DNA from: Acidobacteriota bacterium | GTDB taxonomy: Bacteria; Acidobacteriota; Thermoanaerobaculia; Multivoradales; UBA5704 | Length of the DNA: 64,000 bases | Assembly (NCBI GenBank): GCA_040349255.1 | Contig: JBEQUE010000144.1 | Coordinates: forward strand, 15,524 to 79,523 | Direction of reading: 5' to 3' | Part shown: positions 4,675-25,650 of the stretch, one piece after another | Layout: every line of letters begins with the position of its first letter | How positions within the stretch are numbered: the first letter of the stretch is position 1 | Notes under the pieces: model-generated | The model's database searches: none | What the model saw: the letters and a program-made list of their open reading frames with translations, nothing else | Told to the model about the DNA's origin: nothing | Translations under genes and position numbers: made by a program

Positions 4675-4691
4675 GGCGGCGGTCTCGCCTC

Positions 4692-10038: not shown

Positions 10039-10070
10039 CGCCGGAGCTTGGCAAGGACTCGCTCCTCCTC
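10039..10070. repeat. ~28-bp direct repeat copy 2 (GGAGCTTGGCAAGGAC...CTCCTC), just upstream of the gene start at 9968
   Basis: Matches 9131-9162. Together the two copies bracket the low-GC segment ~9215-10000. Confidence 0.6.
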
Positions 10071-10072
10071 AA

Positions 10073-10118
10073 GGCTTTCCGTCCGTCCTCGTCGATTATC
10101 TTATCGAGACTCCCGCCT
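10073..10118. repeat. ~46-bp boundary motif (GGCTTTCCGTCCGTCCTCGTCGATTATCTTATCGAGACTCCCGCCT), copy 1
   Basis: ~80% identical to 10504-10550. In frame it encodes GFPSVLVDYLIETPA versus GFPSVRVDYLIDTPA in the second copy. Confidence 0.5.
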
Positions 10119-10489
10119 TCAAGATACGTCCGTTCAGGCCCGAGCCGTCATGACCGGACGGTAGGCGTTATCCTTCCGCCATGCGCCAGCCCATTCCGAC
10201 GCTCTTCCTCCTCGCCCTGCCGCTCCTCGCCGCCTGCGCCACCTCTTCGACACCCCCGGCTCCATCGGCGATCACCGCACCCGCCGCACAGGCTCAGGCG
10301 GAATCTCCGGCTCGCGAAGAAGACGAGTACTCCCGCTACGAGCTGCTCGAACCCGGGCTCGGCGCGGTTCCACATTCTCTTCGAGGTCACCGCGACCGAG
10401 CCGGCGCGACGGTCTACTTCAACCCGATCCGCAAGGGCAGCGCCGCGAGCGACGAGTCGGTGCGCGACCGGGCGACCGGACAGCCGCTG
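10118..10489. repeat. ~372-bp direct repeat copy 1 (5' UTR plus first ~100 codons of the lipoprotein gene). It is the degenerate copy, with compensated indels.
   Basis: Aligns base-for-base with 11917-12287 (offset 1799 bp) with scattered substitutions and two indels ~50 nt apart. Confidence 0.75.
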
Positions 10490-10588
10490 AGCGCGTACCT
10501 CCCGGGTTTTCCATCTGTCCGCGTCGATTATCTCATTGATACGCCCGCCTGTCAGTCGAACACGGAGAACGAGACGCGGCCCGATTGA
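10181..10588 (+). pseudogene. Truncated, frameshifted duplicate of the lipoprotein gene 5' end (paralog of 11980-13251)
   Basis: Identical signal/lipobox (MRQPIPTL.LLALPLLAACATSS). A 14-residue stretch differs through a +1/-1 indel pair. The copy diverges after ...GQPL into the boundary motif and terminates. Confidence 0.6.
10504..10550. repeat. ~46-bp boundary motif copy 2 (GGGTTTTCCATCTGTCCGCGTCGATTATCTCATTGATACGCCCGCCT)
   Basis: See 10073-10118. It lies at the junction between the truncated lipoprotein copy and the 3' end of the DUF4157 gene. Confidence 0.5.
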
Positions 10589-11883: not shown

Positions 11884-11916
11884 GCTTGCTCTCCAGCCTC
11901 CCAACACCCCACATCT

Positions 11917-13251: not shown

Positions 13252-13347
13252 AGCGGCGTATACTCAGCGTTGCCGCAAGTTCTGCCGAACAATTCGGCAG
13301 GGTGCTCGCGACATCCATGGTCTCGTCCTTCCTGACAGGAGGTTCGC

Positions 13348-14190
13348 GTGAGAAAAAGAGGCGTTCCGGCAATGCTCGTGCTCTCTGCCCTGCTCGGTCT
13401 CTCCCCTCTGGCCGCCGATCCCACGATCCGGCGCGGCATCGACGTCTTCACCACCCGCGCCGACGGAAGGACCTACTACGACTTCGCCAAGCAACCCATT
13501 CCCGCGGGTTTCTTCTGCAACGCCTCCAAGGCCTTCACCGGCCGGGTGCCGCTCAAGGGGCTGCCTCTCGCAACCCAGACGCCGGGAGAGCTCCGGAATG
13601 CCGACACGATCGTCGAGCGTCTCGACGATGCCGTCTTCAACGGTAAGGACGTTGCCGAGACGCGCATCCGATTCCGGGCCTTGTCGCTGGTGAGCATCGC
13701 CCCCATCAAGACGGCCTGCGGCGACTTCCATGTCTACGTCACCCTCAACGGCCCGCAGCGGGCGACGACGATGAGCATCAGCCGCACCCAGCAAGGAGGC
13801 GGGACCTTTTCCGCGCCTCTCGCGGTCGACGCGCGCATGACCTTCATCCCCGTGAAGAAGTCCGTGAAATCCGCGACCGGCAACAGCGCGCAGAAGTGGG
13901 AGCTCACCGGAAGCTTCACCTTCCCTGCCAGCCCCGTCGCGTGGAGCCTGGGAAATGAGGCGATGAAGAGAATCAGCTCCCCGGTCGTCGACACCAATGG
14001 AGACCTGACTCCGGACACGCGGCTTCCCGGCACCTCGAACTTCCTGGCGGGCACGCCGCCCGGCAATGTCATGACTGGCGCGTACGGCAATATCGGGGCC
14101 TGCCCGTGTGAGCCGGTATGCCATGCCACCTCCGGCGAGATGCACTGCTCCTACCCGACAGAAGACTGCTACCCCGTCGTCTGTCCATAA
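13348..14190 (+). CDS. Secreted hypothetical protein with Cys-rich C-terminus
   Basis: N-terminal signal peptide MRKRGVPAMLVLSALLGLSPLAADP. Eight Cys near the C-terminus (ACPCEPVCHATSGEMHCSYPTEDCYPVVCP). Confidence 0.7.
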   Translation: MRKRGVPAMLVLSALLGLSPLAADPTIRRGIDVFTTRADGRTYYDFAKQPIPAGFFCNASKAFTGRVPLKGLPLATQTPGELRNADTIVERLDDAVFNGKDVAETRIRFRALSLVSIAPIKTACGDFHVYVTLNGPQRATTMSISRTQQGGGTFSAPLAVDARMTFIPVKKSVKSATGNSAQKWELTGSFTFPASPVAWSLGNEAMKRISSPVVDTNGDLTPDTRLPGTSNFLAGTPPGNVMTGAYGNIGACPCEPVCHATSGEMHCSYPTEDCYPVVCP

Positions 14191-14287
14191 CTCCGCATTC
14201 CTGCGAAGAGCCTCGAGGCGGCCGGACAGGGCCGCCCGAGGCCTGGCCGGCTTCCCGTCCTGATGAACGCCGCCTTGCTTCGTCGCT

Positions 14288-14851
14288 TTAGAGGAAGATC
14301 TCGCCGAGAGGGATCTCCAGGCCGGGCAGGAGCGGGCTGGTCAGAATGTCGCCATCCGCCGCGGTCAGCTCCGCGCCCCCCTGGAGGCATTCCCCCATCC
14401 TGCGGAAGATCCGGGCCGCGTTCCGCGTCGGATCGACCATCCAGTACTCCTGGACGCCCAGGATCTCATAGCGCTCCAATTTGAGACCCTCGTCCCGTTT
14501 CCGAGTCGACGGCGAGAGCACCTCGATGACGAGGTCCGGCGCTCCCTGGACGTTCATCTCGGTAAGAATCCTCGCTCTCGCCTGGGAGACGAACAGGAGA
14601 TCCGGCTGGACGACGTCATGCTTGCCGAGCAGAACGTCGGCGGGAGCCACAAAGAGACGGCCCAGTCGATGACGGCGGACGAACGGCGCGATCCAGGAAG
14701 TCAGCTCGACGACGATGCTCTGATGCCACAGGTTCGGAGCCGCCGTCACGAAGTGCTCCCCGTCGAGGATCTCGTGACGGTACCCATCCTCCGGGAACAG
14801 GAGGTAGTCCTCGTAGGTGAGCTTGCGACGGACTGGATCTCGAAGGGCCAT
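14288..14851 (-). CDS. Uma2-family (DUF820) PD-(D/E)xK endonuclease-like protein
   Basis: MALRDPVRRKLTYEDYLLFPEDGYRHEILDGE...PDLVIEVLSPST.R.DEGLKLERY. The start is taken at an internal ATG; the track ORF extends upstream. Confidence 0.7.
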   Translation of the reverse strand: MALRDPVRRKLTYEDYLLFPEDGYRHEILDGEHFVTAAPNLWHQSIVVELTSWIAPFVRRHRLGRLFVAPADVLLGKHDVVQPDLLFVSQARARILTEMNVQGAPDLVIEVLSPSTRKRDEGLKLERYEILGVQEYWMVDPTRNAARIFRRMGECLQGGAELTAADGDILTSPLLPGLEIPLGEIFL

Positions 14852-15021
14852 GGCGACTCCCGTTTGCAGAGCCAGGAAGAGTTTAGCACGGGACACAATC
14901 CTCGGGTCGGAAGAAGTTCCGCCGGAGGATATCTCAGGACTCGCCGTCGTGGAACTCGCGACGAGGCTCGACTGCAATCGAGTCCGCGCTCCTCGAATCC
15001 TCGGACACCTTCTCCCGGAAT

Positions 15022-17424
15022 TCACGCTTTCCGGCGGCAGATAATCTTGTCTCCACTCGTTCCCACGTGATCAAAATACTTGGTTATGATCTCATGGCAA
15101 TGTCGACAACTGGGCCTTATGTCCTCGTGAAGTTCTAGGATGAGGGTATCCACTCTAGGAAGCCAGGAGGCGGAGGTCTCGAGGACCTCGACCTCAGAGC
15201 CTTCGATGTCGAGCTTCAGTATGTCGATGAAAGAGATGCCATACTCCTCCATAAGCCCATCGACAGTGACGGCTGGAACGGTTTGCATAACACTCCTACC
15301 ATCTAGATCACCTTCTACGGTCTGGAATCCCCATGCTCCACTTCCACCATCGATAACCTGGACGCAGGCTTTCTTGCACCAGAGCGCCCCTCTCACTGGG
15401 AATATATTTGGGAAAGGCATCGAATTTCGAACCAGGAGTTGAAAGTTGTGTTCCTCGGGTTCGATCGCGATGATTCGGGCATCGGGATATCGCAGGGCAA
15501 AGTCAACCGATGAAGCACCTATGTTGGCTCCCCCGTCAACAATCACTTTTGGAGGATGTCCGACCTCAAGGATATGAGGCTTCTCGCGGAAGATCTCGCG
15601 ATACACATCGAGATCCGTGGTCTCTGGTCGTATGTGCAGAATGTGACTACCTTCCAGGGCAACCCTTATTGTTGCCTCGTCGAGTTCGGTCCCATTGACA
15701 CTCTCTCCAGTCTCGCCAAACGAAAAATAAGAAGTAGCGGCCAGCCCAAGAAGGCGCTGCCCGACAGGCAGCAAAGAATGGATGTCTTCCCACTTATTTT
15801 CCCATAACGAACCTTGAAAGCCGAGTTCTTTCCAGAGGCGCTCGGCAAAATTGGGCATTATTGGCGCAGAGAGGATGGCCAAGAGCTTCGCCGCGAGCAG
15901 TTCTAGCGCGACGGCTGTCCGCCGCCTTTCATTTTGCGCGATAACTCGAAGCCAGCTTTCCTCGGATTTCGCGAAGCGCCTCGCATCGCGAACGAGCCAA
16001 CCGAGGACGCTTGCAGCGCACTGAGGCGAGAACGTCCTCGCCTCGTAGGCTTTGCTCGCCTGGGCAGTTAGCATGGTTAGTCGTTCTGCGAATCGCAAGT
16101 GCTCTTCCGCCCAACTACCAGCCCCAGGCACCCGTTCCTCGAACTCTCTAGCAGCCCGAACCGCCAATTCCCTGAGCCAAGCCTGCCATTCACGGATCAG
16201 TTCCCGGTCCACGTCCGCGGCGAGCTCAGCCAAACTGAAGTTGGTCCTCTCCACCTCGGGATATGTTGTCGCCATGTGAAAGCGTAGGGAGTCTGCGGGC
16301 ACCCTGCTCAGCAGATGCTGTCCCCAGATTGCATGCTGCCGGCTGGTTGAGAACTTGGAATGATCAAGAAGACGGAACTCGTTCATGAGCAGCGCCGAAG
16401 GAAGACGGATTTGCGAGTCAAAAGCCATCAGCAACGCGGGCACCAGAACTGCGTAGTAAAAAGCATTGTCGAATCCGAAACATTGAATAGCAAGGGAATC
16501 CCCATTCTTCCAGAATTGCTCCCAGCGGCCATCGAGATGCTGGGCATAGGTGAGATAGCGCGCGGCTTCGTCGCACCACGTATAGACTGTCTGGCCCTCG
16601 AATCCTGGAATTGCAATCGGCACCCCCCAGTTATCGTAATGAGAAACAGCAAAATTCCAGAAACCAACCTGTAGAGCCTGCTCGCAGAAAGATCTCAGAT
16701 TAGAGCTCATCGCCACCTTGCTCCAATATTCCTGCAGCCTGCCGCTATACTGGTCAAGCGGGAAGTAGAGGCGCTTCATAGCCCTGAAGGACGGAGGAGC
16801 GCCGCACTGGGCGCAGACCGGATCCAGAAGATCTACACAGCGGTTGGGCATACCGCAACTCTCACATCCGCTTCCCGTGGTACGGCTTCCACAATAGGGG
16901 CAGTGTCCAGAGATATAGTTCTCATAAAGCTGGCGACGACACGGTTCACAATAGGTAGTCGGGTCCACGCGGGAAATGAGCAATCCACGGGCATACAGGT
17001 TACCTAGAAAATCTTGTACGGTCGGTACGTAGAAGAGCGATGAATTCGGCCGAATAAACTGGTCGACGTCAATCCGCGCCCCCCTGAGCGTACTCGCTAT
17101 ACTTTCCGCCATTTGGTCTGCAACCTGCTGAGGGGAGACGCCAGCCTCCATTGCATGGATCTTGACGTCACTCTGATTGTCATCTGTACCAGTGAAAAAG
17201 TGAACCTCTGCGCCACGAAGCCGGAGGTAGCGCGACTGAATGTCTCCTGCAAGGTAGGGCCCGGAGAGATGGCCCACATGCAGATCGCCATTCGGGGTTG
17301 GGGGCGCTGCCATGACAAGTACGCGAAGAGAAGCATAGCGCAACGTATCCCGGCAGTCGCTCGCCAGGCCCTCGACCGCTCCATAACTAGAAATTATCTG
17401 CTTCTTCTCCCTGGGTTCTTCCAT
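15022..17424 (-). CDS. Methionyl-tRNA-synthetase-like class I aaRS catalytic domain (HIGH/KMSKS-like, Zn knuckles) fused to a C-terminal FkbM-family methyltransferase domain
   Basis: PPTPNGDLHVGHLSGPYLAGDIQSRYLRLRGAEVHFFTGTDDNQ (MetRS-like HIGH region). CEPC...CPYC...CESCG...CAQCG knuckles. LLDHSKFSTSRQ (KMSKS-like). C-terminus VVDGGANIGASSVDFALRYPDARIIAIEPEEHNFQLL (FkbM MT motif). ATG at 17424 with GGAGAG SD. Low-GC gene. Confidence 0.8.
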   Translation of the reverse strand: MEEPREKKQIISSYGAVEGLASDCRDTLRYASLRVLVMAAPPTPNGDLHVGHLSGPYLAGDIQSRYLRLRGAEVHFFTGTDDNQSDVKIHAMEAGVSPQQVADQMAESIASTLRGARIDVDQFIRPNSSLFYVPTVQDFLGNLYARGLLISRVDPTTYCEPCRRQLYENYISGHCPYCGSRTTGSGCESCGMPNRCVDLLDPVCAQCGAPPSFRAMKRLYFPLDQYSGRLQEYWSKVAMSSNLRSFCEQALQVGFWNFAVSHYDNWGVPIAIPGFEGQTVYTWCDEAARYLTYAQHLDGRWEQFWKNGDSLAIQCFGFDNAFYYAVLVPALLMAFDSQIRLPSALLMNEFRLLDHSKFSTSRQHAIWGQHLLSRVPADSLRFHMATTYPEVERTNFSLAELAADVDRELIREWQAWLRELAVRAAREFEERVPGAGSWAEEHLRFAERLTMLTAQASKAYEARTFSPQCAASVLGWLVRDARRFAKSEESWLRVIAQNERRRTAVALELLAAKLLAILSAPIMPNFAERLWKELGFQGSLWENKWEDIHSLLPVGQRLLGLAATSYFSFGETGESVNGTELDEATIRVALEGSHILHIRPETTDLDVYREIFREKPHILEVGHPPKVIVDGGANIGASSVDFALRYPDARIIAIEPEEHNFQLLVRNSMPFPNIFPVRGALWCKKACVQVIDGGSGAWGFQTVEGDLDGRSVMQTVPAVTVDGLMEEYGISFIDILKLDIEGSEVEVLETSASWLPRVDTLILELHEDIRPSCRHCHEIITKYFDHVGTSGDKIICRRKA

Positions 17425-17454
17425 ACACACTCTCCATGGCTGACTTAAATTAGC
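17425..17454. promoter_or_regulatory. 30-bp divergent intergenic spacer between the aaRS-like/FkbM gene and the CHAT-SIR2-NACHT gene. Promoters must overlap the coding regions.
   Basis: ATG 17424 (minus) and ATG 17455 (plus). Confidence 0.3.
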
Positions 17455-20400
17455 ATGCCTGACTATAACATACCGAAGACCTCGCCGAGAAGAGTCCTCG
17501 TTCTGTCGACAAACCCTGAGGATACCGAAAGGCTAGCACTTGAACGGGAAACCCGTCAAATTGAGCGTGCATTAGCGCATCGCGAAGGAAGTTTCACGGT
17601 GCGACACGCTATGGCTGCTCACCTTGAAGATCTCGAGGACAGCCTATTCGATTTTAAGCCGCAGTACGTTCATTTCTGCGGCCATGGCTTAAAAGGAGGC
17701 CGAGGTCTTGCCTTCCAGGATGACTCGGGAAGGACGAGTCCCGTTACCACGCGGCAGCTTAAGGAGTTGTTCTCTATCTTCAAAACGAACATCAGCTGCG
17801 TATTTCTCAATTGCTGCTTTTCGCGCCCCCAGGCAGAAGTGATTTCCGCTCATGTCCCCTACGTGATTGGAACAAGTGAGGCGTTTGACGATGAGTTGGC
17901 CGTTGTCTTCGCTTCAAAGTTCTACAAGGCGATTGGTCGTGGAAAAACGGTCCCATTTGCGTTCAAGTTCGCCCGCGCTGTTACCGCCGACAATTTGGAT
18001 TCCCTGATTCCGGTCCTAGTCCGAGGGCGGCGCAAAAATAAAACAAACCCTGGAGATAGCGTCGGCTCTTCTGGCACCAGCCAGTGGAAGGCAGGAAATT
18101 TAGGGCAACCCAAGGAGTTCCGCTCGTTCGATTTAGAAGCAAAGGAAGAACAGGCTTCGTTACACCTCAATACCTCGCAAAAAGAACAGGATCAGGATGC
18201 TCGGCGCGCTTCCCTGAGCCGCCTCTGGAATCGATTAGAACAAAAGCGCGAAGCCGTCATTTTTCTGGGTTCTGCTGCCTGCGCGGAGGGCTTCAAGGAG
18301 GGCAAGCCCTACCCCAGCTTGGATGCCATCGCCAAGCGAATTCTCGATGATGAAGGTCGAAGCACTGGCAATATGACCGACGTTCGCAAGGAGCTGAGAA
18401 ATACATTGCGGATGTGGACTGAAGGGGAGGGAGATCTTTCCGATTTTCTCCGAAAATATATTTCAGGGCAGCCCGGCGCTGCCCATCACTATCTTGCAGC
18501 CTTGGCTCTAGGCCTTTTCCCGGAGTTCAATCTCCTTCTGTTTGTAACGGCCGGATTCGATGACTTGATGGAGGAAGCATTCGTCAGTCTGCTAAGAGGT
18601 GAAACCCGACCCAAGATAAGGCATTACAGCATTGGGCATCAAGAAGAAACAGTTCCTAGAATTTTCGAGGAAGTCTCCGGTCAAGTGCGCAAGGGAGTGC
18701 CTGTTATACTCAAACTATTTGGCGATCTGGACGCAGAGAGTCCCCTGCTCTACCCAAAGACCAAAATTCGTCAGAAGCTTGGGAGCAGTATTCAAGGCTG
18801 GTTCAGCCGTCCCGTGCTCTTCATCGATTGCGGGCCCGAGGATAAAGCCTTTGAAGATTTGTTCTTTAAGACAGAAAAGCGTGGCCCCTTGTTTGTTATT
18901 GGTAAGAACCTTGCACAATATCGAAACGATCCTACTATTCATCATGTCGCCATATCGCTCATGGAATTCGGCCTAGAGTTCCTCGATATGGTGAGATCTA
19001 AAAATCAGGACCTTCTTAAGCGGGTAGAAGATCTCCTGCATAATGTAGATCCTCTCGCGCTCTATCCTGATTGTGAATCTATCATGGCACGCGCCGCTAT
19101 CGCCTCTCGCGCTTCGTTACTACGGGTGGAAGAGCGACTGCCGCGTAGCCGTTCCAATGAGGAAGGCCACGCCTTTGTGCCCATCGCTCGAATTGACACG
19201 CAACCTGATTTCGCGGCCTTCTTGCGGGACGGTAGGCCTCTCCTTGCATTAATCGGTGATTCCGGTTCCGGTAAGTCTACTCTCTTCTACCAAGTCCACC
19301 AAGCCGCGGGTGCTTTCATTTCGATCTTTTATGACATCCATCAACTTCAGGCCACGCGCACGCTTGCTGGTAGGCTTGCCCACGACTTCCTCTGTGACGA
19401 ACGCAATTTCGTCGACCTTGTTAGAGTACTCGACAAGGCATTGAAATTTGAGCAGCGAAAGCTTGTCATTTTTATTGATGGACTCAACGAAAGCCTTGAT
19501 CTGAAGCCTTCCACCTTGCGCTTTGAAATCGAGGATCTTGGCGCGAAACTGCCAGGAACAATCAAGATTGCCTATTCGTGCCGCAGAGTCTATTGGGACA
19601 ATTTCATCCGCAATACATCGCCGCTTTCCAAAGAACTATACTTTAATTCAAAAGAAATAGTTCTAGAGCACTTTTCTCCAAGAGAGGCGGAAAGCGCCTT
19701 CAAGTCATACCAGGAACTTTACGGATTCCTCGGTAACTATGCTTCATTGAGCTCCGAATTCAAGTTGAGAATTAAGGACCCGCTGATGTTGCGTATGCTC
19801 GCAGAGGGTTACGCGGGGAAGAAGCTTCCTGATTTCGCGCCTGCAGTGCTGATCTTCGATACTTACCATAAACGTTTCCGGCAGCGCTTCAAAGGCACTG
19901 TTGTACCGGCTTTCCTCGATGCGCTAGTGGCCGCGAAGGTAAATGAGACCGAGGCGGAACTCGCCTCCGATCAGTTCATCACTGAAGATGTGCGAACGCA
20001 CCCGAAACTCAGTCTTCTGATTCAACAGCAGATGTTGAATGCGCATCGGGGTGGGGACCCACTCCTGCTCCTCGAAGATGAAGGGATACTGACAGCTATC
20101 GATGACGATAGCACATCCTATCGATTCGCCTACGACCGGTTTTTTGAATATCTACTCGGAAAATCACTTTCAAAACTTCTGACTACCGGTTCTAGAGAGA
20201 GGTTCCGAGAGCGTCTTGAGAAGCAGATACGTAGATTAAGCCCCTTTCATTTTTCCTTCCTGCAAGCGCTGAAGTCGGAGGTCATTCGTCTCAACATTCT
20301 CGAGCCAAGCGGGCCCTGCTCCTTTTACGACCCTGAACTTGTGAGAGGACTTCTTGAGAACGAGGATGCGGGGATCGTTGCGTTCACGAAGGACCTGTTA

Positions 20401-21909
20401 AGAGAGTTGATGTTCGAGGGGGGGCGGGACCTCACGTCAGTGATAGCGCAGGTCTTTCAGGATGAGACGGCTAATCAGCTCTTGATGCTGGACATAGCCC
20501 CTGATTCGCCGCGCACGCTCCCCTTGGTTGTGAGAGGGTTGATGCAGGGTGCGAGAGAGATCGCTCGTCGCTGCTGCCATATCCTTGTCAACTTCTTATC
20601 CGAGCCGGAATCCCGGCGCCTCATCGAGGATGAACTCTTTCTCGAGCTTCGCAGGCCGCTTCAGGTCGCGACAATAGGTGGAATGATTTACTATTCAGCA
20701 GCCTTGGCCGGAGAAGCCGATCGTAGGGGTGCTGACCCTCTACCGATAATCCTAGATTTCTGGCGCCGAGCATGGGGAGTCGCAGAAAGGGACGAAAGGG
20801 ATGTCGAGGCGCTGGTCGGCGGCCTAGTGAGAATAGTACACACTGAGGCTGGCCGATTCTTCGGTGATGACAGCAGGAACGCTATGGACTACATATGGAC
20901 AGGCATGCCTCGTGAGATCAAGGATGTTTCCCTTCAGATGGTTCCATTTATTGTCGATTCTGACCGAAGGCTCCCCCCTGACATTCAGGAGATTCTCCTC
21001 TTCTTCGGATCGACCATACGCGATTGGTCAACTCGTCGCGATCCTGCTGCCTATGTAGAGAAGGACTATAAAATAGAGTTCACGATGGCACAGTGGATCC
21101 TGGTGCAGAGGGCGAGGCACCAATACAGCGACGTGAAGGAGACTCTTGAAAGCTTCGTCGCCACAGGTTATTCACGAAGCATTGAGGTGGCGCTTAGCAA
21201 TATGGAGTCCTGTTGCCTCCATATGCTCCTGAATGACAAAGCGCTTCTTAATGACGCTTATCAGACCATGCTTAAGTGGATGCCGATTTACCAGAGTGAT
21301 GAGCAAGGATTTTACGGGCACTTGGCCAAGGAGGACCCCTTCTCGCGCAACGAGTGCCCGATAGATATGGTTGGTCGAATTTCTCTCCTGGATGAGTTTT
21401 CTCCCAAGGAGGGGCGAATCCCGTTTCTTGAGCCTTGGTTCACTAGCCTGGACAGGAGAGACCGCCTGTACGCCCTAATCTGCGCCAGGAAATTGTGGCG
21501 TCATCAACCCGTAAAGATGCTCCAAACCCTCGAAGTCGTTTGTAGCTCGGATGACGAAACCGTCGCCTCTTGGCTGGACGTCATACTCAAGGAAATCTAC
21601 ATGGTTCTCCCGCGTCTCGTGGAGGAGTTCTTTCGGCGTACCGGCATGGAGCCGGCCCGAGCCCAAAGAATCAAGACTCGGTCGGACGTGGTGGACCCTA
21701 GCGCTGTTGTCCACCCTGGAGAGCCCCTCTACAAAGCGCTCTTCCTCGGCCCCCGAGAGCGCCGCAAGAAATTAGCTGAATGGTACCTTCATCTTCTTCA
21801 GTCCGACAGCTTAGAGGATTACTGCGACGCCCTTGCACGATGGTTCATTTCGAAGATCCACAACATGGATACGGGGAACCATGGGTTGAGCGCCGACCTT
21901 GATCCTTGA
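17455..21909 (+). CDS. Giant CHAT-like caspase domain, SIR2-like domain, NACHT-type STAND NTPase and long helical-repeat C-terminus protein (1484 aa)
   Basis: N-terminus RVLVLSTNPEDTERL...YVHFCGHG...CVFLNCCFS (His/Cys dyad). SIR2_2-like motifs AVIFLGSAACAEG, LLFVTAGFDDLMEEAF, ILKLFGDLD. Walker A LLALIGDSGSGKSTLF, Walker B KLVIFIDGLNESLD. Low-GC gene. Confidence 0.85.
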   Translation: MPDYNIPKTSPRRVLVLSTNPEDTERLALERETRQIERALAHREGSFTVRHAMAAHLEDLEDSLFDFKPQYVHFCGHGLKGGRGLAFQDDSGRTSPVTTRQLKELFSIFKTNISCVFLNCCFSRPQAEVISAHVPYVIGTSEAFDDELAVVFASKFYKAIGRGKTVPFAFKFARAVTADNLDSLIPVLVRGRRKNKTNPGDSVGSSGTSQWKAGNLGQPKEFRSFDLEAKEEQASLHLNTSQKEQDQDARRASLSRLWNRLEQKREAVIFLGSAACAEGFKEGKPYPSLDAIAKRILDDEGRSTGNMTDVRKELRNTLRMWTEGEGDLSDFLRKYISGQPGAAHHYLAALALGLFPEFNLLLFVTAGFDDLMEEAFVSLLRGETRPKIRHYSIGHQEETVPRIFEEVSGQVRKGVPVILKLFGDLDAESPLLYPKTKIRQKLGSSIQGWFSRPVLFIDCGPEDKAFEDLFFKTEKRGPLFVIGKNLAQYRNDPTIHHVAISLMEFGLEFLDMVRSKNQDLLKRVEDLLHNVDPLALYPDCESIMARAAIASRASLLRVEERLPRSRSNEEGHAFVPIARIDTQPDFAAFLRDGRPLLALIGDSGSGKSTLFYQVHQAAGAFISIFYDIHQLQATRTLAGRLAHDFLCDERNFVDLVRVLDKALKFEQRKLVIFIDGLNESLDLKPSTLRFEIEDLGAKLPGTIKIAYSCRRVYWDNFIRNTSPLSKELYFNSKEIVLEHFSPREAESAFKSYQELYGFLGNYASLSSEFKLRIKDPLMLRMLAEGYAGKKLPDFAPAVLIFDTYHKRFRQRFKGTVVPAFLDALVAAKVNETEAELASDQFITEDVRTHPKLSLLIQQQMLNAHRGGDPLLLLEDEGILTAIDDDSTSYRFAYDRFFEYLLGKSLSKLLTTGSRERFRERLEKQIRRLSPFHFSFLQALKSEVIRLNILEPSGPCSFYDPELVRGLLENEDAGIVAFTKDLLRELMFEGGRDLTSVIAQVFQDETANQLLMLDIAPDSPRTLPLVVRGLMQGAREIARRCCHILVNFLSEPESRRLIEDELFLELRRPLQVATIGGMIYYSAALAGEADRRGADPLPIILDFWRRAWGVAERDERDVEALVGGLVRIVHTEAGRFFGDDSRNAMDYIWTGMPREIKDVSLQMVPFIVDSDRRLPPDIQEILLFFGSTIRDWSTRRDPAAYVEKDYKIEFTMAQWILVQRARHQYSDVKETLESFVATGYSRSIEVALSNMESCCLHMLLNDKALLNDAYQTMLKWMPIYQSDEQGFYGHLAKEDPFSRNECPIDMVGRISLLDEFSPKEGRIPFLEPWFTSLDRRDRLYALICARKLWRHQPVKMLQTLEVVCSSDDETVASWLDVILKEIYMVLPRLVEEFFRRTGMEPARAQRIKTRSDVVDPSAVVHPGEPLYKALFLGPRERRKKLAEWYLHLLQSDSLEDYCDALARWFISKIHNMDTGNHGLSADLDP

Positions 21910-22144
21910 GTATCCGCCATCTTTCAATAGCCGAGGCATTGCTACTCCCGCCGAGGTGATAAACCAAGCTGACCGCTTCACTGCATGTTGCCCTGACTCC
22001 AGCTGCCCGAATGGCCAGATTCCACAGATCATCATAGCTAGCATTAGCCATAAGGTCGTAGAATCCATACAGTTCAATCGGTCGGTCGTGCGTGACAACC
22101 ACGAAGGAAATCAGGAACTTCGATCTCATCGGGTTGGCCTCTCG

Positions 22145-22867
22145 TCAACTGTGTAATGCGCGAGGGGCTTTGACTAGATGTTTGTGGTCGTTTTCGCCAG
22201 GGCCAAAGTATTCCCGGTTGTTGCAGCGGCGGCATATCTCTGAAGCCTCCTGCCTTTTGCCTTCTTGGAGCAGGTTACGGAGGTGGACGAATCGCGGGGA
22301 AAACCAAATCTCCTCAAGAGTCTGAACCGATATATTTCCCATGACATGGCTTCGCTCGGCGTCGTCACAGCAGAGCAGGACATCCCCGCCAACTGTAATT
22401 ATCAACATGTCAGTCGGAGCATAACATGGCAAGAACAGTGGCTCCTCCGTTGTACCCAGGAGCCCACCTCGATTCACAAGAACAAGATCCGAGGGGAACT
22501 GGATCGTCTGATAGGGCCTTTCCGGCATCGGCTCATAATCATGGCGTGTCACAATGAAGTGATCTATGCCGGCCTCCCTTAGGGAGGTGTAACGCTCATC
22601 AAGGAGAAGGTCTCCGTTGGTGAATAAAACCTGAAATGCATTTGGAAGACGGGCGGCCGCCTTCCTTACCAAAGTTTCCAGATCGCGACGCAAGAGCGGC
22701 TCATTGAACAAGTGATACGATAGGTTCCCTTGGAAATTGACCCGCTCCAACTCGGAAACAATACGATCGAACAACGATTCGCTCATAAAGAGATCGGTCT
22801 TGGGCGCGGGTAATACCGACACGGGGCAATAGCTGCACCGGCGATTGCACCGAGCATTGACCTCCAT
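22145..22867 (-). CDS. Small radical SAM enzyme with SPASM/twitch-like C-terminal Cys cluster (BtrN-like size)
   Basis: CNRRCSYCP (CxxxCxxC) near the N-terminus. C-terminal LLCCDD...CRRCNN. The start is taken at an internal Met (MEVNARCNRRC), which leaves a 5-nt gap after the DegT stop; the track ORF extends to 22966. Confidence 0.7.
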   Translation of the reverse strand: MEVNARCNRRCSYCPVSVLPAPKTDLFMSESLFDRIVSELERVNFQGNLSYHLFNEPLLRRDLETLVRKAAARLPNAFQVLFTNGDLLLDERYTSLREAGIDHFIVTRHDYEPMPERPYQTIQFPSDLVLVNRGGLLGTTEEPLFLPCYAPTDMLIITVGGDVLLCCDDAERSHVMGNISVQTLEEIWFSPRFVHLRNLLQEGKRQEASEICRRCNNREYFGPGENDHKHLVKAPRALHS

Positions 22868-22872
22868 TTCGA

Positions 22873-24225
22873 CTACGCTGAACCAACTTCCCTGGGGCTC
22901 GACAGGTTGTCCTCTAAACACGAGTTTGCCTCCGACGGCACGCTGGCGTTTTCCAATTGGTGCCAATAGTGCATGACCTTTTCTACAGCCCTGACGATAT
23001 CTTCAATCTCCGCGAGGCCCCCAAGAAGTGCATTGTGGGGGATGGCGATATAGCGACGGCGGGCCGCAACTGCCGTTGGTAGGTGGAAACGGGAAGGTTC
23101 GAAAGGGCTCGGCCCAGTCGCCTGATGGCGCCGCGGAGATCTCATGGGATTGAACAGTTGATTCTGGTTCAATGGATCATAGAGAGGCTGAATCGTCAAG
23201 CCTAACTCCGCCGTCAATGCGGCGGCAACGGTCTCTATGGGCACGCAGCCGAACCGCTCAAGTTGAAACTCCAGGCAGTAGCGGTAGAAGGTAGGCCGTC
23301 CCGCCGCCTCGGGTTTGTGGAGGGGGCGGACTCCCGATATCTCGCGGAGCCGCGAAGTCAGATGTGACGCGTTCTCTGTCCGAATGGCGTTCTCCTCGTC
23401 TAGAAATCGTAGACGATCGTGGAGAATGGCCGCATGGAACTCTGAAAGGCAATGGTTGTGTCCCTGGACATCTCCTGCGGGTTCAAGCTCCAGGCCTCTC
23501 GGTATTCGGCGCGCTACGTAGCGTCGGCCATCGGCCCGGAACTGCTGCAAGAGGCTGTACAGATTGGCATCCTTGGTAATCACGGCTCCGCCTTCGCCGC
23601 TGGCCAGGACTTTGCTCTGTTGCATGCTGAACACACCTGCAGCGCCGAAGGTTCCTACCTTTCTACCCTGCCAAGAAGCACCATGAGCATGCGAACAATC
23701 CTCGATCAATGGGATTCCGGTCGTGCTCGACAACTCTTGGAATGACGCGAGGTCGGCAACTGTGCAGTAGAGATGGACCAGCATAATAGCCGCCGTCGCT
23801 CTGGTAATTGCGTTCCGTGCCGCGTTAACGGACATACAGAGCGTATCAGGATCAACGTCGACCAGTATGGGGATACCTCCCAAGCGCGCTACAGAGGAGC
23901 CGCAGGCAACCCAAGTGAGGCCAGGAACGAGAACCTCCCGTCCCGGACCGATACCGAGGGCTTCGAGCGCGATTGTAAGGGCTGACGAACCGTTGGCTGT
24001 CGGAACACAGTAGGGCACTTCGTGGAAGGCGGCGAACGACTCTGCGAATTGTCGTTCGAAGGGAAGATCCTCCAAGCATGGCCCGCTGATCGTCCAGCGC
24101 TGCGAGCGAAGAACTTTCAAGAGAGCTTCTTCCGTGGATTGCTCCGCGCGCGGCCAGTTAGGCCAGGAAAGGCTTCTGACAGGAATTCCGCCGAGGATCG
24201 CCAAGAGAGACGAGGAAGCAGTCAT
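22873..24225 (-). CDS. DegT/DnrJ/EryC1/StrS-family PLP-dependent aminotransferase
   Basis: FSMQQSKVLASGEGGAVIT (PLP-Lys motif). The family also contains scyllo-inosose aminotransferases. ATGA overlap with the upstream gene. Confidence 0.85.
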   Translation of the reverse strand: MTASSSLLAILGGIPVRSLSWPNWPRAEQSTEEALLKVLRSQRWTISGPCLEDLPFERQFAESFAAFHEVPYCVPTANGSSALTIALEALGIGPGREVLVPGLTWVACGSSVARLGGIPILVDVDPDTLCMSVNAARNAITRATAAIMLVHLYCTVADLASFQELSSTTGIPLIEDCSHAHGASWQGRKVGTFGAAGVFSMQQSKVLASGEGGAVITKDANLYSLLQQFRADGRRYVARRIPRGLELEPAGDVQGHNHCLSEFHAAILHDRLRFLDEENAIRTENASHLTSRLREISGVRPLHKPEAAGRPTFYRYCLEFQLERFGCVPIETVAAALTAELGLTIQPLYDPLNQNQLFNPMRSPRRHQATGPSPFEPSRFHLPTAVAARRRYIAIPHNALLGGLAEIEDIVRAVEKVMHYWHQLENASVPSEANSCLEDNLSSPREVGSA

Positions 24226-25379
24226 CGTTGCAGTGTCAAGAATTCAATAAGTTTTCGGAACTGCTCTGGCACGGAGTGCTCACAGGAGGCTCCTTCGCCG
24301 ACAATAGGATCCTTGAAAAAATATGAAGCGGCATCCAATGAGCCGTGACAACCCGCTTCCGCAGCGTAGGCGACCACTCGTACAAGATCAATTATTGCAG
24401 GCGCTGCCAGAATTGAGTCCTGTCCTAGCCAATTGATCTTCAATTGCATTGGGACACCCAGGAAGCCGCGAAAATCAATGTTGTCCCACGCTTCCTTGGA
24501 GTCACCGCGCGGGGGATAATAATGGATATGGACTTGATGACCCGTCCCGTGCGCGCCTCCGGGCACATAGCCGAGGATGGAGCTCAGGCATTTGCTCTTC
24601 GAGATGATCTTCGTCTCACCGGCTCCAGGCTTGGACAAGGAGAGACCATCGTCATTACCGAGCAGGTTTGTACTGAACCACCCATCGATCCGAAGGTTCT
24701 TGTCCCTGAATGCCGGCGCGAGAGTAGTCTTGATGAAGGTCTGACCGGTTTTGCCATCGCGGCCAGCATAGATTAAACCCTTCTCTTCGGCGAGTTCCCG
24801 CAGGGGAGTAATTTCGGCCGGGTTCGGAGTGAAGTTAATAAAATGGGCTCGCGCCTCAATAGCGAGACGGAAGTAGATTTGGCTAACCGAATACGAGGCA
24901 CCCAACTCCAATTCATCGAGATTCCTCCAATCGATCCGCTCGTCAGCGTCCTGCTTGGGCACGGGCTCCGTCGGGCAAAGATTGACCAGTATCACGTGTC
25001 GCCAATCTTCTCTCCGCCGCTTCCTGTTCAGGTGGGCCGCTTCCCGTCGGATCCAATCGCCTATTGATTCTCTTTGGAGCTCAATTCCCTTTCTTGGCTT
25101 GATCCTTTGCAGGCGTTGCTTCGCCTTCGAGAGTACCTCCGGGGGGCATATGCGGTGTCGCTTACAGGAAGCGTACAAAGTGTCCTGATTCATGTCCCAG
25201 CCATGGATGGACATGGAGGAGAATGGCAAAAGCCGGCAACCGGATGCACGCACCAGAGGCGACTCCGTCGCCACGCCGAAACCGGCAATTTCTTCAGGTG
25301 GCATCGAAAGCCCAGCTGCCAACGTGCTACCGACCGCCCCTGCCAGTCCAGCAACCATGATAAGAGCTGGTTCTGCCAT
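24222..25379 (-). CDS. myo-Inositol-1-phosphate synthase (Ino1/MIPS) family protein
   Basis: IMVAGLAGAVGSTL (Rossmann), FINFTPNP, GRDGKTGQT, STNLLGNDDG (matches the MIPS SYNHLGNNDG motif). First gene of the MIPS-DegT-rSAM operon. Confidence 0.75.
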   Translation of the reverse strand: MAEPALIMVAGLAGAVGSTLAAGLSMPPEEIAGFGVATESPLVRASGCRLLPFSSMSIHGWDMNQDTLYASCKRHRICPPEVLSKAKQRLQRIKPRKGIELQRESIGDWIRREAAHLNRKRRREDWRHVILVNLCPTEPVPKQDADERIDWRNLDELELGASYSVSQIYFRLAIEARAHFINFTPNPAEITPLRELAEEKGLIYAGRDGKTGQTFIKTTLAPAFRDKNLRIDGWFSTNLLGNDDGLSLSKPGAGETKIISKSKCLSSILGYVPGGAHGTGHQVHIHYYPPRGDSKEAWDNIDFRGFLGVPMQLKINWLGQDSILAAPAIIDLVRVVAYAAEAGCHGSLDAASYFFKDPIVGEGASCEHSVPEQFRKLIEFLTLQR

Positions 25380-25650
25380 TCAGTTCTCCATACAGATTTC
25401 GGAAGAAGCAGATAATTTCTAGTTATCCGCTATCTCGAAGGTCCACTAGTAGAATATTCCTGCTGGGCGTTCAGTGATTATAGTGCCATTGTAAGTGTAT
25501 TCTGGCGATAGTCAACACATAATCCTTGTTCCGAACAAATATAAATCTTCGCGCTATAGCAACCGGCTGATCCCGTCGCATCGCATTATTTGTACCTTCC
25601 CTAGTAACCGCGTGTTCCTCAAGCGTGCCTGCGAACTTAGTTGTGACTGT
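25380..25650 (-). promoter_or_regulatory. AT-rich upstream/promoter region of the MIPS-DegT-rSAM operon and boundary of the low-GC island
   Basis: AT-rich non-coding stretch immediately 5' of the ATG at 25379. GC rises sharply after ~25650. Confidence 0.3.

Follow-up and report, generated by a model that had tools for sequence, protein, structure and literature searches.

We lean, on balance, towards reading the fusion of a methionyl-tRNA synthetase (MetRS)-like ligase and an FkbM-family methyltransferase encoded in the 64-kb window (the whole stretch of DNA that was analysed; Table 1) as a tailoring enzyme with two activities, aminoacylation and methylation, in a small aminocyclitol (aminoglycoside-like) pathway that was acquired horizontally. 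Sequence and predicted fold alike place the ligase closest to PyrN-C, which in bacterial hydrazine synthetases serves as the MetRS-like O-aminoacyl-hydroxylamine synthetase. By analogy with PyrN-C, the ligase module would bind ATP and a free amino acid other than methionine, form the aminoacyl-AMP and then, with no tRNA involved, transfer the aminoacyl moiety to a small-molecule nucleophile. Because the clade to which the fusion belongs is without a cupin partner and a lysine N-hydroxylase, this nucleophile would no longer be N6-hydroxylysine; we infer that it is an amine or hydroxyl of an inosamine/streptamine-type cyclitol, acylated in an amide or ester bond and supplied by the neighbouring myo-inositol-1-phosphate synthase homolog (MIPS), BtrS-type aminotransferase and BtrN-type radical-SAM dehydrogenase. 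The FkbM module (residues ~590-802) would methylate this scaffold as well, a ring hydroxyl being the most probable site.

Table 1. Features of the fusion gene and its surroundings, in window coordinates
Feature	Position	Strand	Basis or remark
Uma2-family putative endonuclease	14288..15025	-	Pfam Uma2 E 2e-34; PADLOC PDC-S03
MetRS-like ligase + FkbM methyltransferase fusion	15022..17430	-	Single unbroken ORF
FkbM-family SAM-dependent methyltransferase module, residues ~590-801	15025..15663	-	Pfam, TIGR01444
Class-I aaRS-like module, residues 36-570	15721..17325	-	Hydrazine-synthetase (PyrN-C) type
Alpha-helix bundle, residues ~400-560, MetRS anticodon-binding-domain homolog	15751..16233	-	Pfam Anticodon_3, DSSP
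KFSTS, residues 359-363	16342..16356	-	Counterpart of MetRS KMSKS and PyrN KFSTG
HVGH, residues 51-54, HIGH-type ATP-binding motif	17269..17280	-	Aligned to PyrN H147-LGH150
Left arm, perfect 25-bp inverted repeat	17383..17407	+	Inside codons ~8-16 of the fusion ORF
BIG, 1,484-aa CHAT-like/SIR2/NACHT-STAND protein	17455..21909	+	Pfam, PADLOC
GT2 glycosyltransferase gene remnant	21917..22114	-	In-frame internal deletion
BtrN-type radical-SAM/SPASM (twitch) dehydrogenase	22145..22966	-	PDB 4M7T BtrN E 2.7e-45, full length; Pfam
BtrS/BtrR-type aminocyclitol aminotransferase, DegT family	22873..24225	-	PDB 5W70, 2C7T
MIPS family cyclase	24222..25379	-	Pfam Inos-1-P_synth + NAD_binding_5 (PF01658/PF07994)
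Right arm, 25-bp inverted repeat	25402..25426	-	22 nt upstream of the MIPS start codon

Read from the GTG at 17430 the fusion is 802 aa long, and from the ATG at 17424 it is 800 aa. The latter is the start used by NCBI and was the limit given in an earlier, sequence-only reading of this DNA (15022-17424); the open frame itself reaches the GTG. The search for the phyletic distribution of the fusion that this reading had proposed recovered the same architecture in three independent assemblies at 69-74% identity, with P0002 (JGI) at 74% and P0003 (ENA) at 69%. Compared with locus L001, the gene has a dN/dS of 0.15 overall, with the ligase part at 0.14 and the methyltransferase part at 0.155, and is under purifying selection. 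Since three independent assemblies carry the same fusion under purifying selection, it is not an assembly chimera, the artefact against which the earlier reading had cautioned. In locus L003 the two parts are separate genes: a cupin-less ligase, an APH-family kinase and a stand-alone 227-aa FkbM protein lie consecutively on one strand, the last being 50% identical to the methyltransferase part of the fusion. This gene order counts as Rosetta-stone evidence in favour of the aminocyclitol reading.

The ligase module consists of a Rossmann core, a CP domain with two Zn knuckles, a KFSTS domain and a helix bundle. Pfam tRNA-synt_1g matched residues 38-416 (E 4e-79), and a phmmer search of the PDB with the ligase returned PyrN-C (9L8V/9VQ4) at E 1e-95, P. 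abyssi MetRS at 6e-74 and E. coli MetRS at 1e-36. The AlphaFold model of the module (pLDDT >90) superposed on PyrN-C 9L8V over all 531 residues (Foldseek TM 0.93, rmsd 2.2 Å), as against a TM of 0.77 for the best MetRS. Identity is 35% to PyrN-C and 55-60% to acidobacterial cupin-fused hydrazine synthetases; among the homologs, the nearest (45-60% identity) carry a fused cupin at the N-terminus, and one of these, P0005, is located in a canonical N-hydroxylase/hydrazine synthetase/FAD-oxidase cassette. In the tree, the ligase nests among hydrazine-synthetase ligases. These results support the earlier suggestion that a stand-alone aaRS paralog serves here as the ligase of a small-molecule pathway. 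The comparison that the sequence-only reading drew with MetRS and MshC has to be redirected: hydrazine synthetases, a family it did not consider, contain the nearest characterised relative in their MetRS-like domain (PyrN-C, PDB 9L8V).

The MetRS-core motifs that had been recognised from the letters are all present, namely PNGDLHVGH (residues 46-54), RYLRLRGAEVHF (67-78), the Zn-knuckle Cys pairs (C161/164, C177/180, C189/192 and C206/209) and KFSTS (359-363). HVGH is invariant across 120 homologs, and the ligase keeps the eight Zn cysteines together with the equivalents of PyrN T141, N143, Q182, D420, N421 and N449. With the MetRS-like domains of PyrN-C, Spb40, Tri28 and ThzN it shares the four-part architecture, the helix bundle, two Zn knuckles, HxGH and KFST[GS] (bioRxiv 10.1101/2025.08.22.671884; PMC8664883; PMC12376268), the PyrN form of the last motif being KFSTG (bioRxiv 10.1101/2025.08.22.671884). 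The PyrN reaction is tRNA-independent (PMC8664883), the 64-kb window contains no tRNA genes, and with the D420, N421, T141 and N143 equivalents in place a tRNA-independent, ATP-dependent aminoacyl transfer would be expected of the fusion by analogy.

The likeness to MshC, the CysRS paralog of the mycothiol pathway (cited in PMC2922099), that the sequence-only reading had proposed would hold at the level of the reaction. MshC is likewise a class-I aaRS paralog whose aminoacyl-adenylate acylates, without tRNA, the amine of an inositol-containing pseudo-disaccharide, in a pathway that begins with an inositol-phosphate synthase and uses a glycosyltransferase; it differs in being CysRS-derived, in having no methyltransferase fusion and in using GlcN-Ins, not an inosamine, as the acceptor. 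In sequence the two are not specifically related, and an MshC-type, CysRS-derived origin was rejected, as the CysRS-type Pfam model tRNA-synt_1e is marginal (18.5 bits, below the cut-off of 27) and the fusion is derived from the MetRS/hydrazine-synthetase line.

The proposed acceptor is drawn from the gene cassette nearby. The aminotransferase matches L-glutamine:2-deoxy-scyllo-inosose aminotransferase (5W70) at E 1e-109 and BtrR (2C7T) at 3e-92, and the MIPS matches PDB 7NWR and A. fulgidus 1U1I at E ~1e-46. Among solved structures, the window aminotransferase and radical-SAM dehydrogenase come closest to butirosin BtrS/BtrR and BtrN, which jointly oxidise and transaminate a cyclitol, and by these matches the cassette enzymes are specifically of the aminocyclitol type, in line with the earlier reading. 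The 2-deoxystreptamine pathway differs in its ring-forming enzyme: the cyclase here belongs to the MIPS family, and no gene resembling the BtrC-type 2-deoxy-scyllo-inosose synthase is present in the island gene lists. Because the cyclase is a MIPS homolog, a fully hydroxylated inosamine/streptamine-type ring would be expected rather than 2-deoxystreptamine. The sequence-only reading mentioned neither the radical-SAM dehydrogenase nor the giant NLR-like neighbour.

That reading placed the ligase next to the inositol-phosphate synthase/aminotransferase cassette. It is indeed nearby (22873-25379), with the BIG gene intervening in the window, and the association recurs in independent loci: MIPS, DegT and BtrN-like genes are accompanied by the fusion or a stand-alone homolog in the window and in L091/L092, and likewise in L001, where the two lie side by side. 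Ligase and cassette occur together in these three loci only. Within 10 kb of the cassette in L012 the ligase is absent, which suggests that it contributes an accessory step and not a core one. Variable neighbours of the cassette are a GT2, an APH-family kinase and a NodU/CmcH-family (Carbam_trans) carbamoyltransferase, all of classic aminoglycoside tailoring types. Aminoacylated aminocyclitols occur in some aminoglycoside antibiotics.

The methyltransferase half passes both family models, with Methyltransf_21 (PF05050) at residues 632-771 (E 1.6e-12; 48.4 bits against a cut-off of 22.7) and TIGR01444 at 74.2 bits (cut-off 37.7). It carries the DxGAxxG SAM motif as VDGGANIG at residues ~631-638, of which D632, G634 and G638 are invariant among 112 methyltransferase-domain homologs. 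The FkbM family and motif named in the sequence-only reading are thus both present, the motif reading VIVDGGANIGASS and not VVDGG... as given there. The model of the domain (pLDDT 89) has a Rossmann-type, class-I methyltransferase topology. A fold search returned generic class-I methyltransferases only, which leaves the methyl acceptor unconstrained. The nearest relatives of the domain are stand-alone proteins of ~250 aa, one of them in a glycan cluster, or, where multidomain, glycosyltransferase fusions. Among the best 150 of 28,143 matches (1.84 billion representatives), an FkbM domain fused to an aaRS-like ligase was found in the present cluster only.

The intervening BIG gene raises an alternative that has some claim to attention, although we consider it unlikely. 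The five genes of the low-GC island (the cyclitol cassette as the core, the ligase-methyltransferase as one of the variable tailoring genes, and the CHAT-SIR2-NACHT protein) could form one previously undescribed conflict or anti-phage system, in which the product of the re-tooled ligase would act with the NLR-like protein, the modified aminocyclitol being either a chemical weapon against phage or a ligand or signal controlling that protein, and not an ordinary secreted antibiotic. BIG is conserved beside the cassette in every related locus examined. An ortholog convergent to the cassette was confirmed in five loci (the window, L001, L012, L091/92 and L093), with identities from 48 to 80% (48-49% over ~1,455 aa in L012 and L092, 49% for a partial sequence in L093 and 79-80% for the C-terminal part in L001); a sixth locus, the P0391 contig, has a gene of 946+ aa in the BIG position that may encode another ortholog. 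Proteins encoded on cyanobacterial plasmids share the first 200 aa of BIG, joined there to TIR, NACHT or SAVED domains. All five island genes have a GC content of 0.52-0.58 as against ~0.70 in the flanks, and the island is a mobile one. Its surroundings are full of defence-type genes (Uma2/PDC-S03, a second CHAT-Mrr-NACHT protein, toxin-antitoxin pairs, an AAA_15/DUF4276 pair and an integrase). Against this, the co-location may reflect no more than a shared mobile island, no PADLOC model includes the cassette, our literature search found no paper on such a system, and NLR-like defence proteins usually function as single genes. The pairing of the cassette with a SIR2-NACHT protein in defence-island-like DNA provides a testable candidate link between small-molecule biosynthesis and bacterial NLR-type immunity. 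Simple biosynthesis leaves the strict co-conservation of the NLR-like protein unexplained, an observation that weighs against the aminocyclitol reading.

The aminocyclitol reading also has to be set against the chemistry of the ligase family. To our knowledge, hydrazine-synthetase MetRS-like ligases are known only for the formation of O-aminoacyl-hydroxylamines that lead to N-N bonds, and descriptions of them make the tie to a cupin and a lysine N-hydroxylase a strict one. In the characterised members the attacking atom is the oxygen of a zwitterionic hydroxylamine; attack by an amine or hydroxyl of the ordinary kind would represent a different chemistry, which counts against the aminocyclitol reading. 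The fusion could still be imagined as part of a split hydrazine synthetase, making an O-aminoacyl-hydroxylamine from N6-hydroxylysine or an N-hydroxylated aminocyclitol, with a cupin and an N-hydroxylase elsewhere in the genome completing the N-N bond and the methyltransferase modifying the hydrazine product. The close identity to cupin-fused synthetases and the retention of every catalytic residue would agree with this, and there are precedents, such as the RHS1 partner and AsnHS, in which a MetRS-like protein stands alone and the cupin is separate.

We regard a split synthetase as improbable, given the missing partners, the neighbourhood and the pocket. The split hydrazine-synthetase systems described have cupin and N-hydroxylase neighbours, reportedly "without exception" (Aravind 2010). 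Only ~35 residues precede the ligase core of the fusion, and tblastn with three hydrazine-synthetase cupins found no cupin in the 64-kb window (best E 0.29) or in the six related loci L001, L003, L012 and L091-L093. The same held for a lysine/ornithine N-hydroxylase, searched for with the N-hydroxylase domain of P0015 (best E in the window 0.23, none in the six loci). The positive control L004 was detected in these searches, its N-hydroxylase at 66% identity over 461 aa. The fusion has a C-terminal FkbM domain, and its conserved neighbours are aminocyclitol enzymes rather than hydrazine-processing ones, with no N-oxygenase among them.

As for the pocket, seven cupin-less sequences, the fusion included, form one clade (bootstrap 95/100). 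In an alignment with six clade members (the L092 protein was added later), four columns alone separate these six from 114 hydrazine-synthetase relatives. The clade-specific changes are, in PyrN numbering, Y184D, N283S, V383T and M387E, and the Glu at position 387 is also retained by the L092 protein. All four positions lie in or beside residues that contact the amino acid or N6-hydroxylysine in PyrN-C crystal structures, and those at 184 and 283 fall in the hydroxylamine-binding region. The 8-residue specificity code of the fusion, APDQWENY, differs from those of the hydrazine synthetases and had no match among the codes in the literature searched. If the aminocyclitol reading is correct, this would be the first clade to have shed both partners, with four pocket changes, the gain of a methyltransferase and a move into an aminocyclitol cassette. 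The hydrazine-synthetase ligase family would then be used for ordinary aminoacyl transfer onto a sugar-like scaffold, an ATP-only, tRNA-free route to aminoacylated aminocyclitols that would be new and a natural starting point for ligase engineering.

A macromolecular acceptor, either a protein such as the neighbouring NLR-like protein or an RNA, is very improbable. Protein-modifying aaRS paralogs do exist, the LysRS paralog PoxA/GenX modifying EF-P, and the ligase gene directly adjoins BIG in the window and in L092. In L001, however, it adjoins MIPS and not BIG, the closest relatives of the ligase work on small molecules and those of the FkbM domain are associated with carbohydrates. An RNA partner stays formally conceivable, a point against the aminocyclitol reading, since the bundle retains the Trp equivalent to MetRS W461.

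The same bundle bears on whether the fusion could be a genuine second MetRS. The sequence-only reading had seen no anticodon-binding domain, which is incorrect for the fold: Pfam Anticodon_3 matched residues 434-559 (30.3 bits against a cut-off of 23.5), and DSSP of the AlphaFold model gave a confident helix bundle at residues 400-535. The alignment with MetRS that it had advised as a check for domain loss continues, for both the E. coli and the P. abyssi enzymes, to residue ~535-540, the bundle being kept. From sequence and model, it is the anticodon-reading residues that are absent and not the bundle fold. Residues were mapped on what we take to be the E. coli MetRS reference sequence, checked only at the motif positions of HLGH, KMSKS and W461. 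Four of the five anticodon-contact residues (N391, R395, N452, D456 and W461, here A, E, R, K and W) are replaced, W461 alone being kept. In the Met pocket W253 and Y260 are retained, and the changes are L13 to P, Y15 to T, A256 to E, P257 to A, I297 to N and H301 to Y. Because L13, Y15, A256, I297 and H301 are changed, methionine, the substrate assumed in the sequence-only reading, is unlikely. The fusion agrees with canonical MetRS in its overall fold and in the sequence of its domains, and it has the Zn knuckles, a HIGH-type motif, a D52 equivalent and the Lys that opens KMSKS; it differs in lacking the C-terminal tRNA-binding appendix and in having T at K335 of KMSKS. Its scores fall short of the NCBIfam MetRS equivalogs (best model NF001100, 298.5 bits against a cut-off of 587; TIGR00398, 261.8 against 336), and in weighing this alternative we placed it under half of every such cut-off. 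A true MetRS was rejected on the equivalog cut-offs, the Met pocket and the CAU-reading residues, so that a second MetRS, such as an antibiotic-resistant copy fortuitously fused to a methyltransferase, is hardly credible in spite of the full MetRS domain order and the W461 equivalent, the ligase being closer to PyrN-C than to any MetRS and nested inside the hydrazine-synthetase clade.

The Uma2 gene, whose start overlaps the fusion stop by 4 nt, has no counterpart in L001; as it is not conserved in related loci, it probably lies outside the system. At the other end of the fusion, a perfect 25-bp inverted repeat (0 expected by chance) brackets 7,994 bp that are inverted relative to L001, as indicated by junction alignment, and this ~8-kb inversion replaced the first ~8 codons of the fusion gene together with its upstream region. 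The GT2 remnant matches only residues 4-18 and 211-263 of the 280-aa GT2 of L001. Given this deletion and the inversion at the 5' end of the fusion, the pathway of this strain may have been changed or may be only poorly expressed.

The fusion gene, in which a MetRS-like ligase is joined to an FkbM methyltransferase, is rare, and three assemblies support it as a genuine protein. The ATG at 17424 is the start of the 800-aa protein deposited at NCBI, which carries the name 'MAG: FkbM family methyltransferase [Acidobacteriota bacterium]' and is encoded on a contig of 100,651 nt. A sequence-only reading of this DNA had described the gene as a MetRS paralog fused to an FkbM-type methyltransferase, and that observation was confirmed for the most part, with every motif it quoted found in the ORF. 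Three assemblies, each of a different source, had the same architecture, the other two proteins being P0002 on a JGI contig (74% identity to the window protein) and P0003 on an ENA contig (69%). Together with a linker conserved across the assemblies and purifying selection on both halves (window versus the JGI locus L001, dN/dS 0.14 in the ligase part and 0.155 in the methyltransferase part), this rules out the assembly chimera that the same reading had considered. Proteins with both PF09334 and PF05050 were limited to these three among the 120 best matches. Among the best 150 FkbM-domain matches in 1.84 billion representatives, the ligase-FkbM architecture was confined to the window protein's cluster, the remaining long matches being glycosyltransferase fusions. 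Searches for further fusions with the FkbM half as query found only relatives that stand alone or are fused to glycosyltransferases, a metagenome scan with the same half returned just one distant FkbM, and a genome scan with an alignment of the ligase clade described below found zero relatives among 185,579 species representatives.

The island that holds the fusion is distinct in composition: its five genes, between 15022 and 25379, have a GC content of 0.52 to 0.58 versus approximately 0.70 in the flanks. The neighbors of the fusion are a giant CHAT-like/SIR2/NACHT-STAND protein (BIG) and a cassette comprising a myo-inositol-1-phosphate synthase (MIPS) homolog, a DegT-family aminotransferase and a BtrN-type radical-SAM (rSAM) dehydrogenase. 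Comparison of the window with L001 shows purifying selection on each of the five island genes (dN/dS 0.075 to 0.15). BtrS/BtrR and BtrN are the oxidation/transamination pair of 2-deoxystreptamine biosynthesis; as a MIPS-type cyclase here replaces 2-deoxy-scyllo-inosose synthase, the cassette is expected to yield an inosamine or streptamine-type ring that is fully hydroxylated. Residues ~19 to 210 of the glycosyltransferase (GT2) gene are gone in the window strain and, since only in-frame fragments are left, the glycosylation step appears to have been lost in this strain. In L001, nothing downstream of the fusion corresponds to the Uma2-family gene that adjoins it in the window.

Features of the fusion, its island and related loci (window positions unless a locus or residues are named)
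Feature	Position	Strand	Details
Fusion ORF	15022-17430	minus	Single unbroken frame, GTG start, 802 aa
tRNA-synt_1g	fusion residues 38-416		Pfam, E 4e-79
Anticodon_3	fusion residues 434-559		Pfam, 30.3 bits, cut-off 23.5
FkbM Methyltransf_21	fusion residues 632-771		Pfam, E 1.6e-12
Uma2-family putative endonuclease	14288-15025	minus	Start overlaps fusion stop codon by 4 nt; PADLOC candidate PDC-S03
BIG	17455-21909	divergent from fusion	CHAT-like/SIR2/NACHT-STAND, 1,484 aa
BIG residues 1-200	17455-18054		N-terminal module
GT2 remnant	21917-22114	minus	In frame; residues 4-18 and 211-263 of the intact L001/L012/L093 gene left
Radical-SAM/SPASM protein	in island		Only strong solved relative BtrN, E 2.7e-45, full length
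DegT-family enzyme	in island		Best match L-glutamine:2-deoxy-scyllo-inosose aminotransferase, E 1e-109; BtrR 3e-92
MIPS homolog	in island		myo-Inositol-1-phosphate synthase family
25-bp perfect inverted repeat, arm 1	17383-17407		ATAACTAGAAATTATCTGCTTCTTC; inside fusion codons ~8-16
25-bp perfect inverted repeat, arm 2	25402-25426		ATAACTAGAAATTATCTGCTTCTTC; 22 nt upstream of MIPS start
Second lower-GC stretch	4329-9968		GC 0.58-0.61; HEAT/ARM-repeat protein (PADLOC HEAT-ARM_XIII), 1,048-aa Mrr-CHAT-NACHT protein
eCIS-core-domain protein	10552-11907		Follows the second lower-GC stretch
HTH_3 ORF	27336-28187		Part 27759-28055 similar to L092 protein
L001 (JGI)	BIG 2-982		BIG (C-terminal part, 79-80% identity), then GT2, rSAM, DegT, MIPS on opposite strand, then fusion
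L012 (Holophagales MAG)	BIG 12509-16918		MIPS-DegT-rSAM-GT2-APH facing BIG (48% over 1,455 aa); integrase nearby
L091/L092	BIG 12438-16805 (L092)		APH-family kinase, then MIPS-DegT-rSAM-carbamoyltransferase facing BIG (49%)
L092 carbamoyltransferase	L092 10787-12457		Carbam_trans
L092 unannotated protein	L092 19028-19753		241 aa, adjoins ligase
L093	BIG 6640-10458		MIPS-DegT-rSAM-GT2, second rSAM, carbamoyltransferase; facing BIG (49%)
L093 BtrN-like paralogs	L093 2534-3295; 4166-4954		71% and 61% identity to window protein
L093 carbamoyltransferase	L093 4980-6653		Carbam_trans
L003		one strand	Clade ligase, then APH-family kinase, then stand-alone FkbM
P0391 contig			MIPS-DegT-rSAM-GT2 facing 946+ aa gene (candidate BIG in the same position)

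The 25-bp repeat, for which the number expected by chance is 0, encloses 7,994 bp that hold BIG, the GT2 remnant and the rSAM, DegT and MIPS genes. In L001, the fusion is directly divergent from MIPS, and at this junction the sequence left of the repeat aligns to the MIPS side of the window while the sequence to its right aligns to the 5' end of the window ligase. The gene order of the window therefore resembles that of L001 after an inversion of the 7,994 bp from BIG to MIPS, so that the first ~8 codons of the fusion and its upstream region derive from BIG-proximal DNA and are not ancestral. The repeat prompted us to consider a programmed invertible element. This is disfavored, and a one-off inversion is the simplest reading, since the loci L001, L012, L092 and L093 lack a comparable repeat and a Pfam scan of island and flanking ORFs turned up no recombinase.

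Comparison of related loci separates a core, consisting of MIPS, the aminotransferase, the BtrN-like enzyme and BIG, from variable tailoring steps. The ligase, alone or together with the methyltransferase, is one of the latter, as are a glycosyltransferase, a kinase, a carbamoyltransferase and a second dehydrogenase, all of kinds seen in aminoglycoside pathways. The contigs carrying P0009, P0023 and P0121 were too short for their gene neighborhoods to inform this comparison. Orthologs of BIG (~1,460 to 1,484 aa) were convergent to the cassette in the five loci checked, at 48 to 80% identity. Of 79 genome loci whose BtrN-like genes are more distant, L012 alone had BIG, and it alone had a close MIPS ortholog (61% identity); a distant MIPS homolog (30 to 40%), without BIG, occurred in three others. 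The ligase itself occurs as a 575-aa stand-alone protein directly upstream of BIG in L091/L092, and is absent within 10 kb in L012. In L003 the ligase is separate from an FkbM protein with 50% identity to the methyltransferase half of the window protein, and this split arrangement lends Rosetta-stone support to the idea that the halves of the fusion are functionally linked. Some cassette variants, such as L093, have a pair of BtrN-like paralogs, which would fit two successive oxidation-transamination rounds. The carbamoyltransferase of L092 and L093 (NodU/CmcH-family) replaces GT2 or adds to it. An HTH-type protein encoded ~2 kb from the island in the window shows weak similarity (38% over 99 aa) to the 241-aa L092 protein, and the two may be a shared regulator.

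The conserved pairing of the cassette with an NLR-like protein is unexpected. We found no description in the literature of such a protein paired with a cyclitol pathway, and nothing relevant on the cassette in a SIR2 or anti-phage context. One possibility, compatible with the biosynthetic reading, is that the whole island may be a single conflict system. A BIG ortholog stands beside the cassette in five loci with divergence down to 48% identity, and BIG weakly matches the Avs2 and CHAT models of PADLOC, in which the fusion and the cassette match no model. Many cyanobacterial plasmid proteins, with TIR, NACHT, SAVED or CHAT domains in their annotation, start with a region 37 to 40% identical to the N-terminal 200 aa of BIG. 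The region is fused there to TIR, NACHT or SAVED, and its recurrence suggests that the module is a shared, shuffled conflict-system domain. The surroundings also contain Uma2/PDC-S03, a second CHAT-Mrr-NACHT protein, toxin-antitoxin pairs and an integrase. Separately, the region from 4329 to 11907 looks like a defence or conflict island.

The ligase half belongs, by sequence and fold, to the MetRS-like family of the hydrazine synthetases. Its best solved relative is 9L8V/9VQ4 (E 1e-95), compared to 6e-74 for P. abyssi MetRS and 1e-36 for E. coli MetRS, and Foldseek aligned the same structure with a TM of 0.93 and an rmsd of 2.2 A over 531 residues, the best MetRS reaching 0.77. This structure is that of PyrN-C. 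In the pyrazomycin hydrazine synthetase, PyrN-C is the MetRS-like 'O-aminoacyl-hydroxylamine synthetase' domain, which converts an amino acid to the adenylate and transfers it to the oxygen of N6-hydroxylysine (bioRxiv 10.1101/2025.08.22.671884). The aminoacyl transfer by PyrN proceeds without tRNA (PMC8664883), and the cupin domain of PyrN rearranges the aminoacyl ester into an N-N bond. HVGH and KFSTS in the fusion correspond to HLGH and KFSTG in PyrN, eight of eight zinc cysteines are kept, as are the equivalents of PyrN T141, N143, Q182, D420, N421 and N449. The closest homologs (45 to 60% identity), mostly from Thermoanaerobaculia/Acidobacteriota and also from Pendulispora, are ~675 aa long and, like PyrN, have a cupin at the N-terminus. 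One close homolog is a three-part N-hydroxylase-cupin-ligase fusion, and the gene for P0005 (60% identity) is flanked by those for a Lys/Orn N-oxygenase and a DAO-family oxidase, which is the canonical hydrazine cassette.

As a system, however, the fusion is unlike a hydrazine synthetase. The family has been described as tied 'without exception' to a cupin and a lysine N6-monooxygenase (PMC2922099). Using tblastn, neither the hydrazine-synthetase cupin (three queries) nor an N-hydroxylase was found in the 64-kb window, L001, L003, L012 or L091 to L093, whereas both were readily detected in the control locus L004. In a neighbor-joining tree, the three fusions grouped with the stand-alone ligases P0004, P0009 and P0023; with the L092 ligase added, the clade has seven members and a bootstrap of 95/100, the values being 100 for the fusions alone and 99 for the fusions with P0004. 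The loci searched thus indicate that the ligase of this clade stayed competent for the chemistry, while both of the partners by which hydrazine synthesis is defined were lost. Only four alignment columns set the clade members (n = 6, the L092 protein having joined later) apart from the other homologs (n = 114), and all four fall in the substrate region: 184 (Y to D), 283 (N to S), 383 (V to T) and 387 (M to E) in PyrN numbering, or D88, S187, T284 and E288 in the ORF. Position 387 is part of the published amino-acid 'specificity code', 383 lies one turn ahead of it, and 184 and 283 adjoin N6-hydroxylysine-binding residues of the ternary crystal complex. The nine-position code of the fusion is APDQWERNY, that of the nearest hydrazine-synthetase relatives APDQWMRNY, and that of the glycine-type enzymes matching Spb40 TPDQWMGNH; the L092 ligase (APDQWEFNQ) keeps the Glu. 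The codes PDQWENY (clade) and PDQWMNY (nearest relatives) had no match in the searchable literature, and because the code of the fusion matches no characterised enzyme, prediction of the amino-acid substrate from it was impossible. Both the neighborhood data and the pocket changes disfavor the possible alternative of a split hydrazine synthetase whose partners are encoded at a distance.

Aminoacylation of a macromolecule by the fusion has no specific support, and a true MetRS is essentially excluded. The statement in the sequence-only reading that no anticodon-binding domain is evident was wrong as regards the fold. In addition to the Anticodon_3 match, the AlphaFold model (pLDDT >90 over residues 30 to 570) has long helices at residues 400 to 535 and superposes on each residue of the top Foldseek match, and the alignment to MetRS proposed in that reading reaches query residue ~535 to 540 with both the E. 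coli and P. abyssi enzymes. Mapped on an E. coli MetRS sequence, checked by the HLGH, KMSKS and W461 positions only, the anticodon contacts N391, R395, N452, D456 and W461 correspond to A, E, R, K and W in the fusion. In the same numbering the methionine pocket is changed (L13 to P, Y15 to T, A256 to E, P257 to A, I297 to N, H301 to Y), and the second lysine of KMSKS is Thr. With the NCBIfam MetRS equivalog models the score was 298 bits, the cut-off being 587. On these scores and on the residues of the pocket and the anticodon contacts, a genuine second MetRS was rejected, and methionine, the amino acid suggested earlier, is an unlikely substrate. The remaining tryptophan, W493 in the fusion, is equivalent to the W461 that stacks on the anticodon in E. 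coli MetRS; it is kept in the acidobacterial hydrazine-synthetase relatives and most of the clade, and absent from PyrN.

The C-terminal half is a bona fide FkbM-family methyltransferase with an intact SAM-binding module. D632, G634 and G638 are invariant in 112 homologs, and the domain modelled alone had a pLDDT of 89; its value below 50 in the full-length model probably results from methyltransferase sequences poorly placed in the mixed alignment. Foldseek of the domain against the PDB returned only generic class-I methyltransferases (TM <0.5) and no substrate clue. Its nearest relatives either stand alone, within glycan clusters, or are fused to GT2, GT14 or GT7 glycosyltransferases.

The earlier idea of an aaRS-like ligase acting on an aminocyclitol is thus partly supported as to function, with the nearest relative and the amino acid wrongly assigned. 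It is established that relatives of the ligase form aminoacyl-AMP and transfer the aminoacyl group to small-molecule nucleophiles independently of tRNA. By analogy, the fusion would work as the PyrN-C/Spb40 ligases do in their first half-reaction and in aminoacyl transfer, in a manner comparable to MshC, which forms an amide on GlcN-Ins. We found nothing relevant in the literature on aaRS-like enzymes in aminocyclitol pathways. The nucleophile of the clade may be an amine or hydroxyl of the cassette aminocyclitol, giving an amide as with MshC or an ester, and the new acidic pocket residues D88 and E288 would suit a cationic substrate. The FkbM module would then O-methylate the ring, which fits with the glycan clusters and glycosyltransferase fusions of its nearest relatives.
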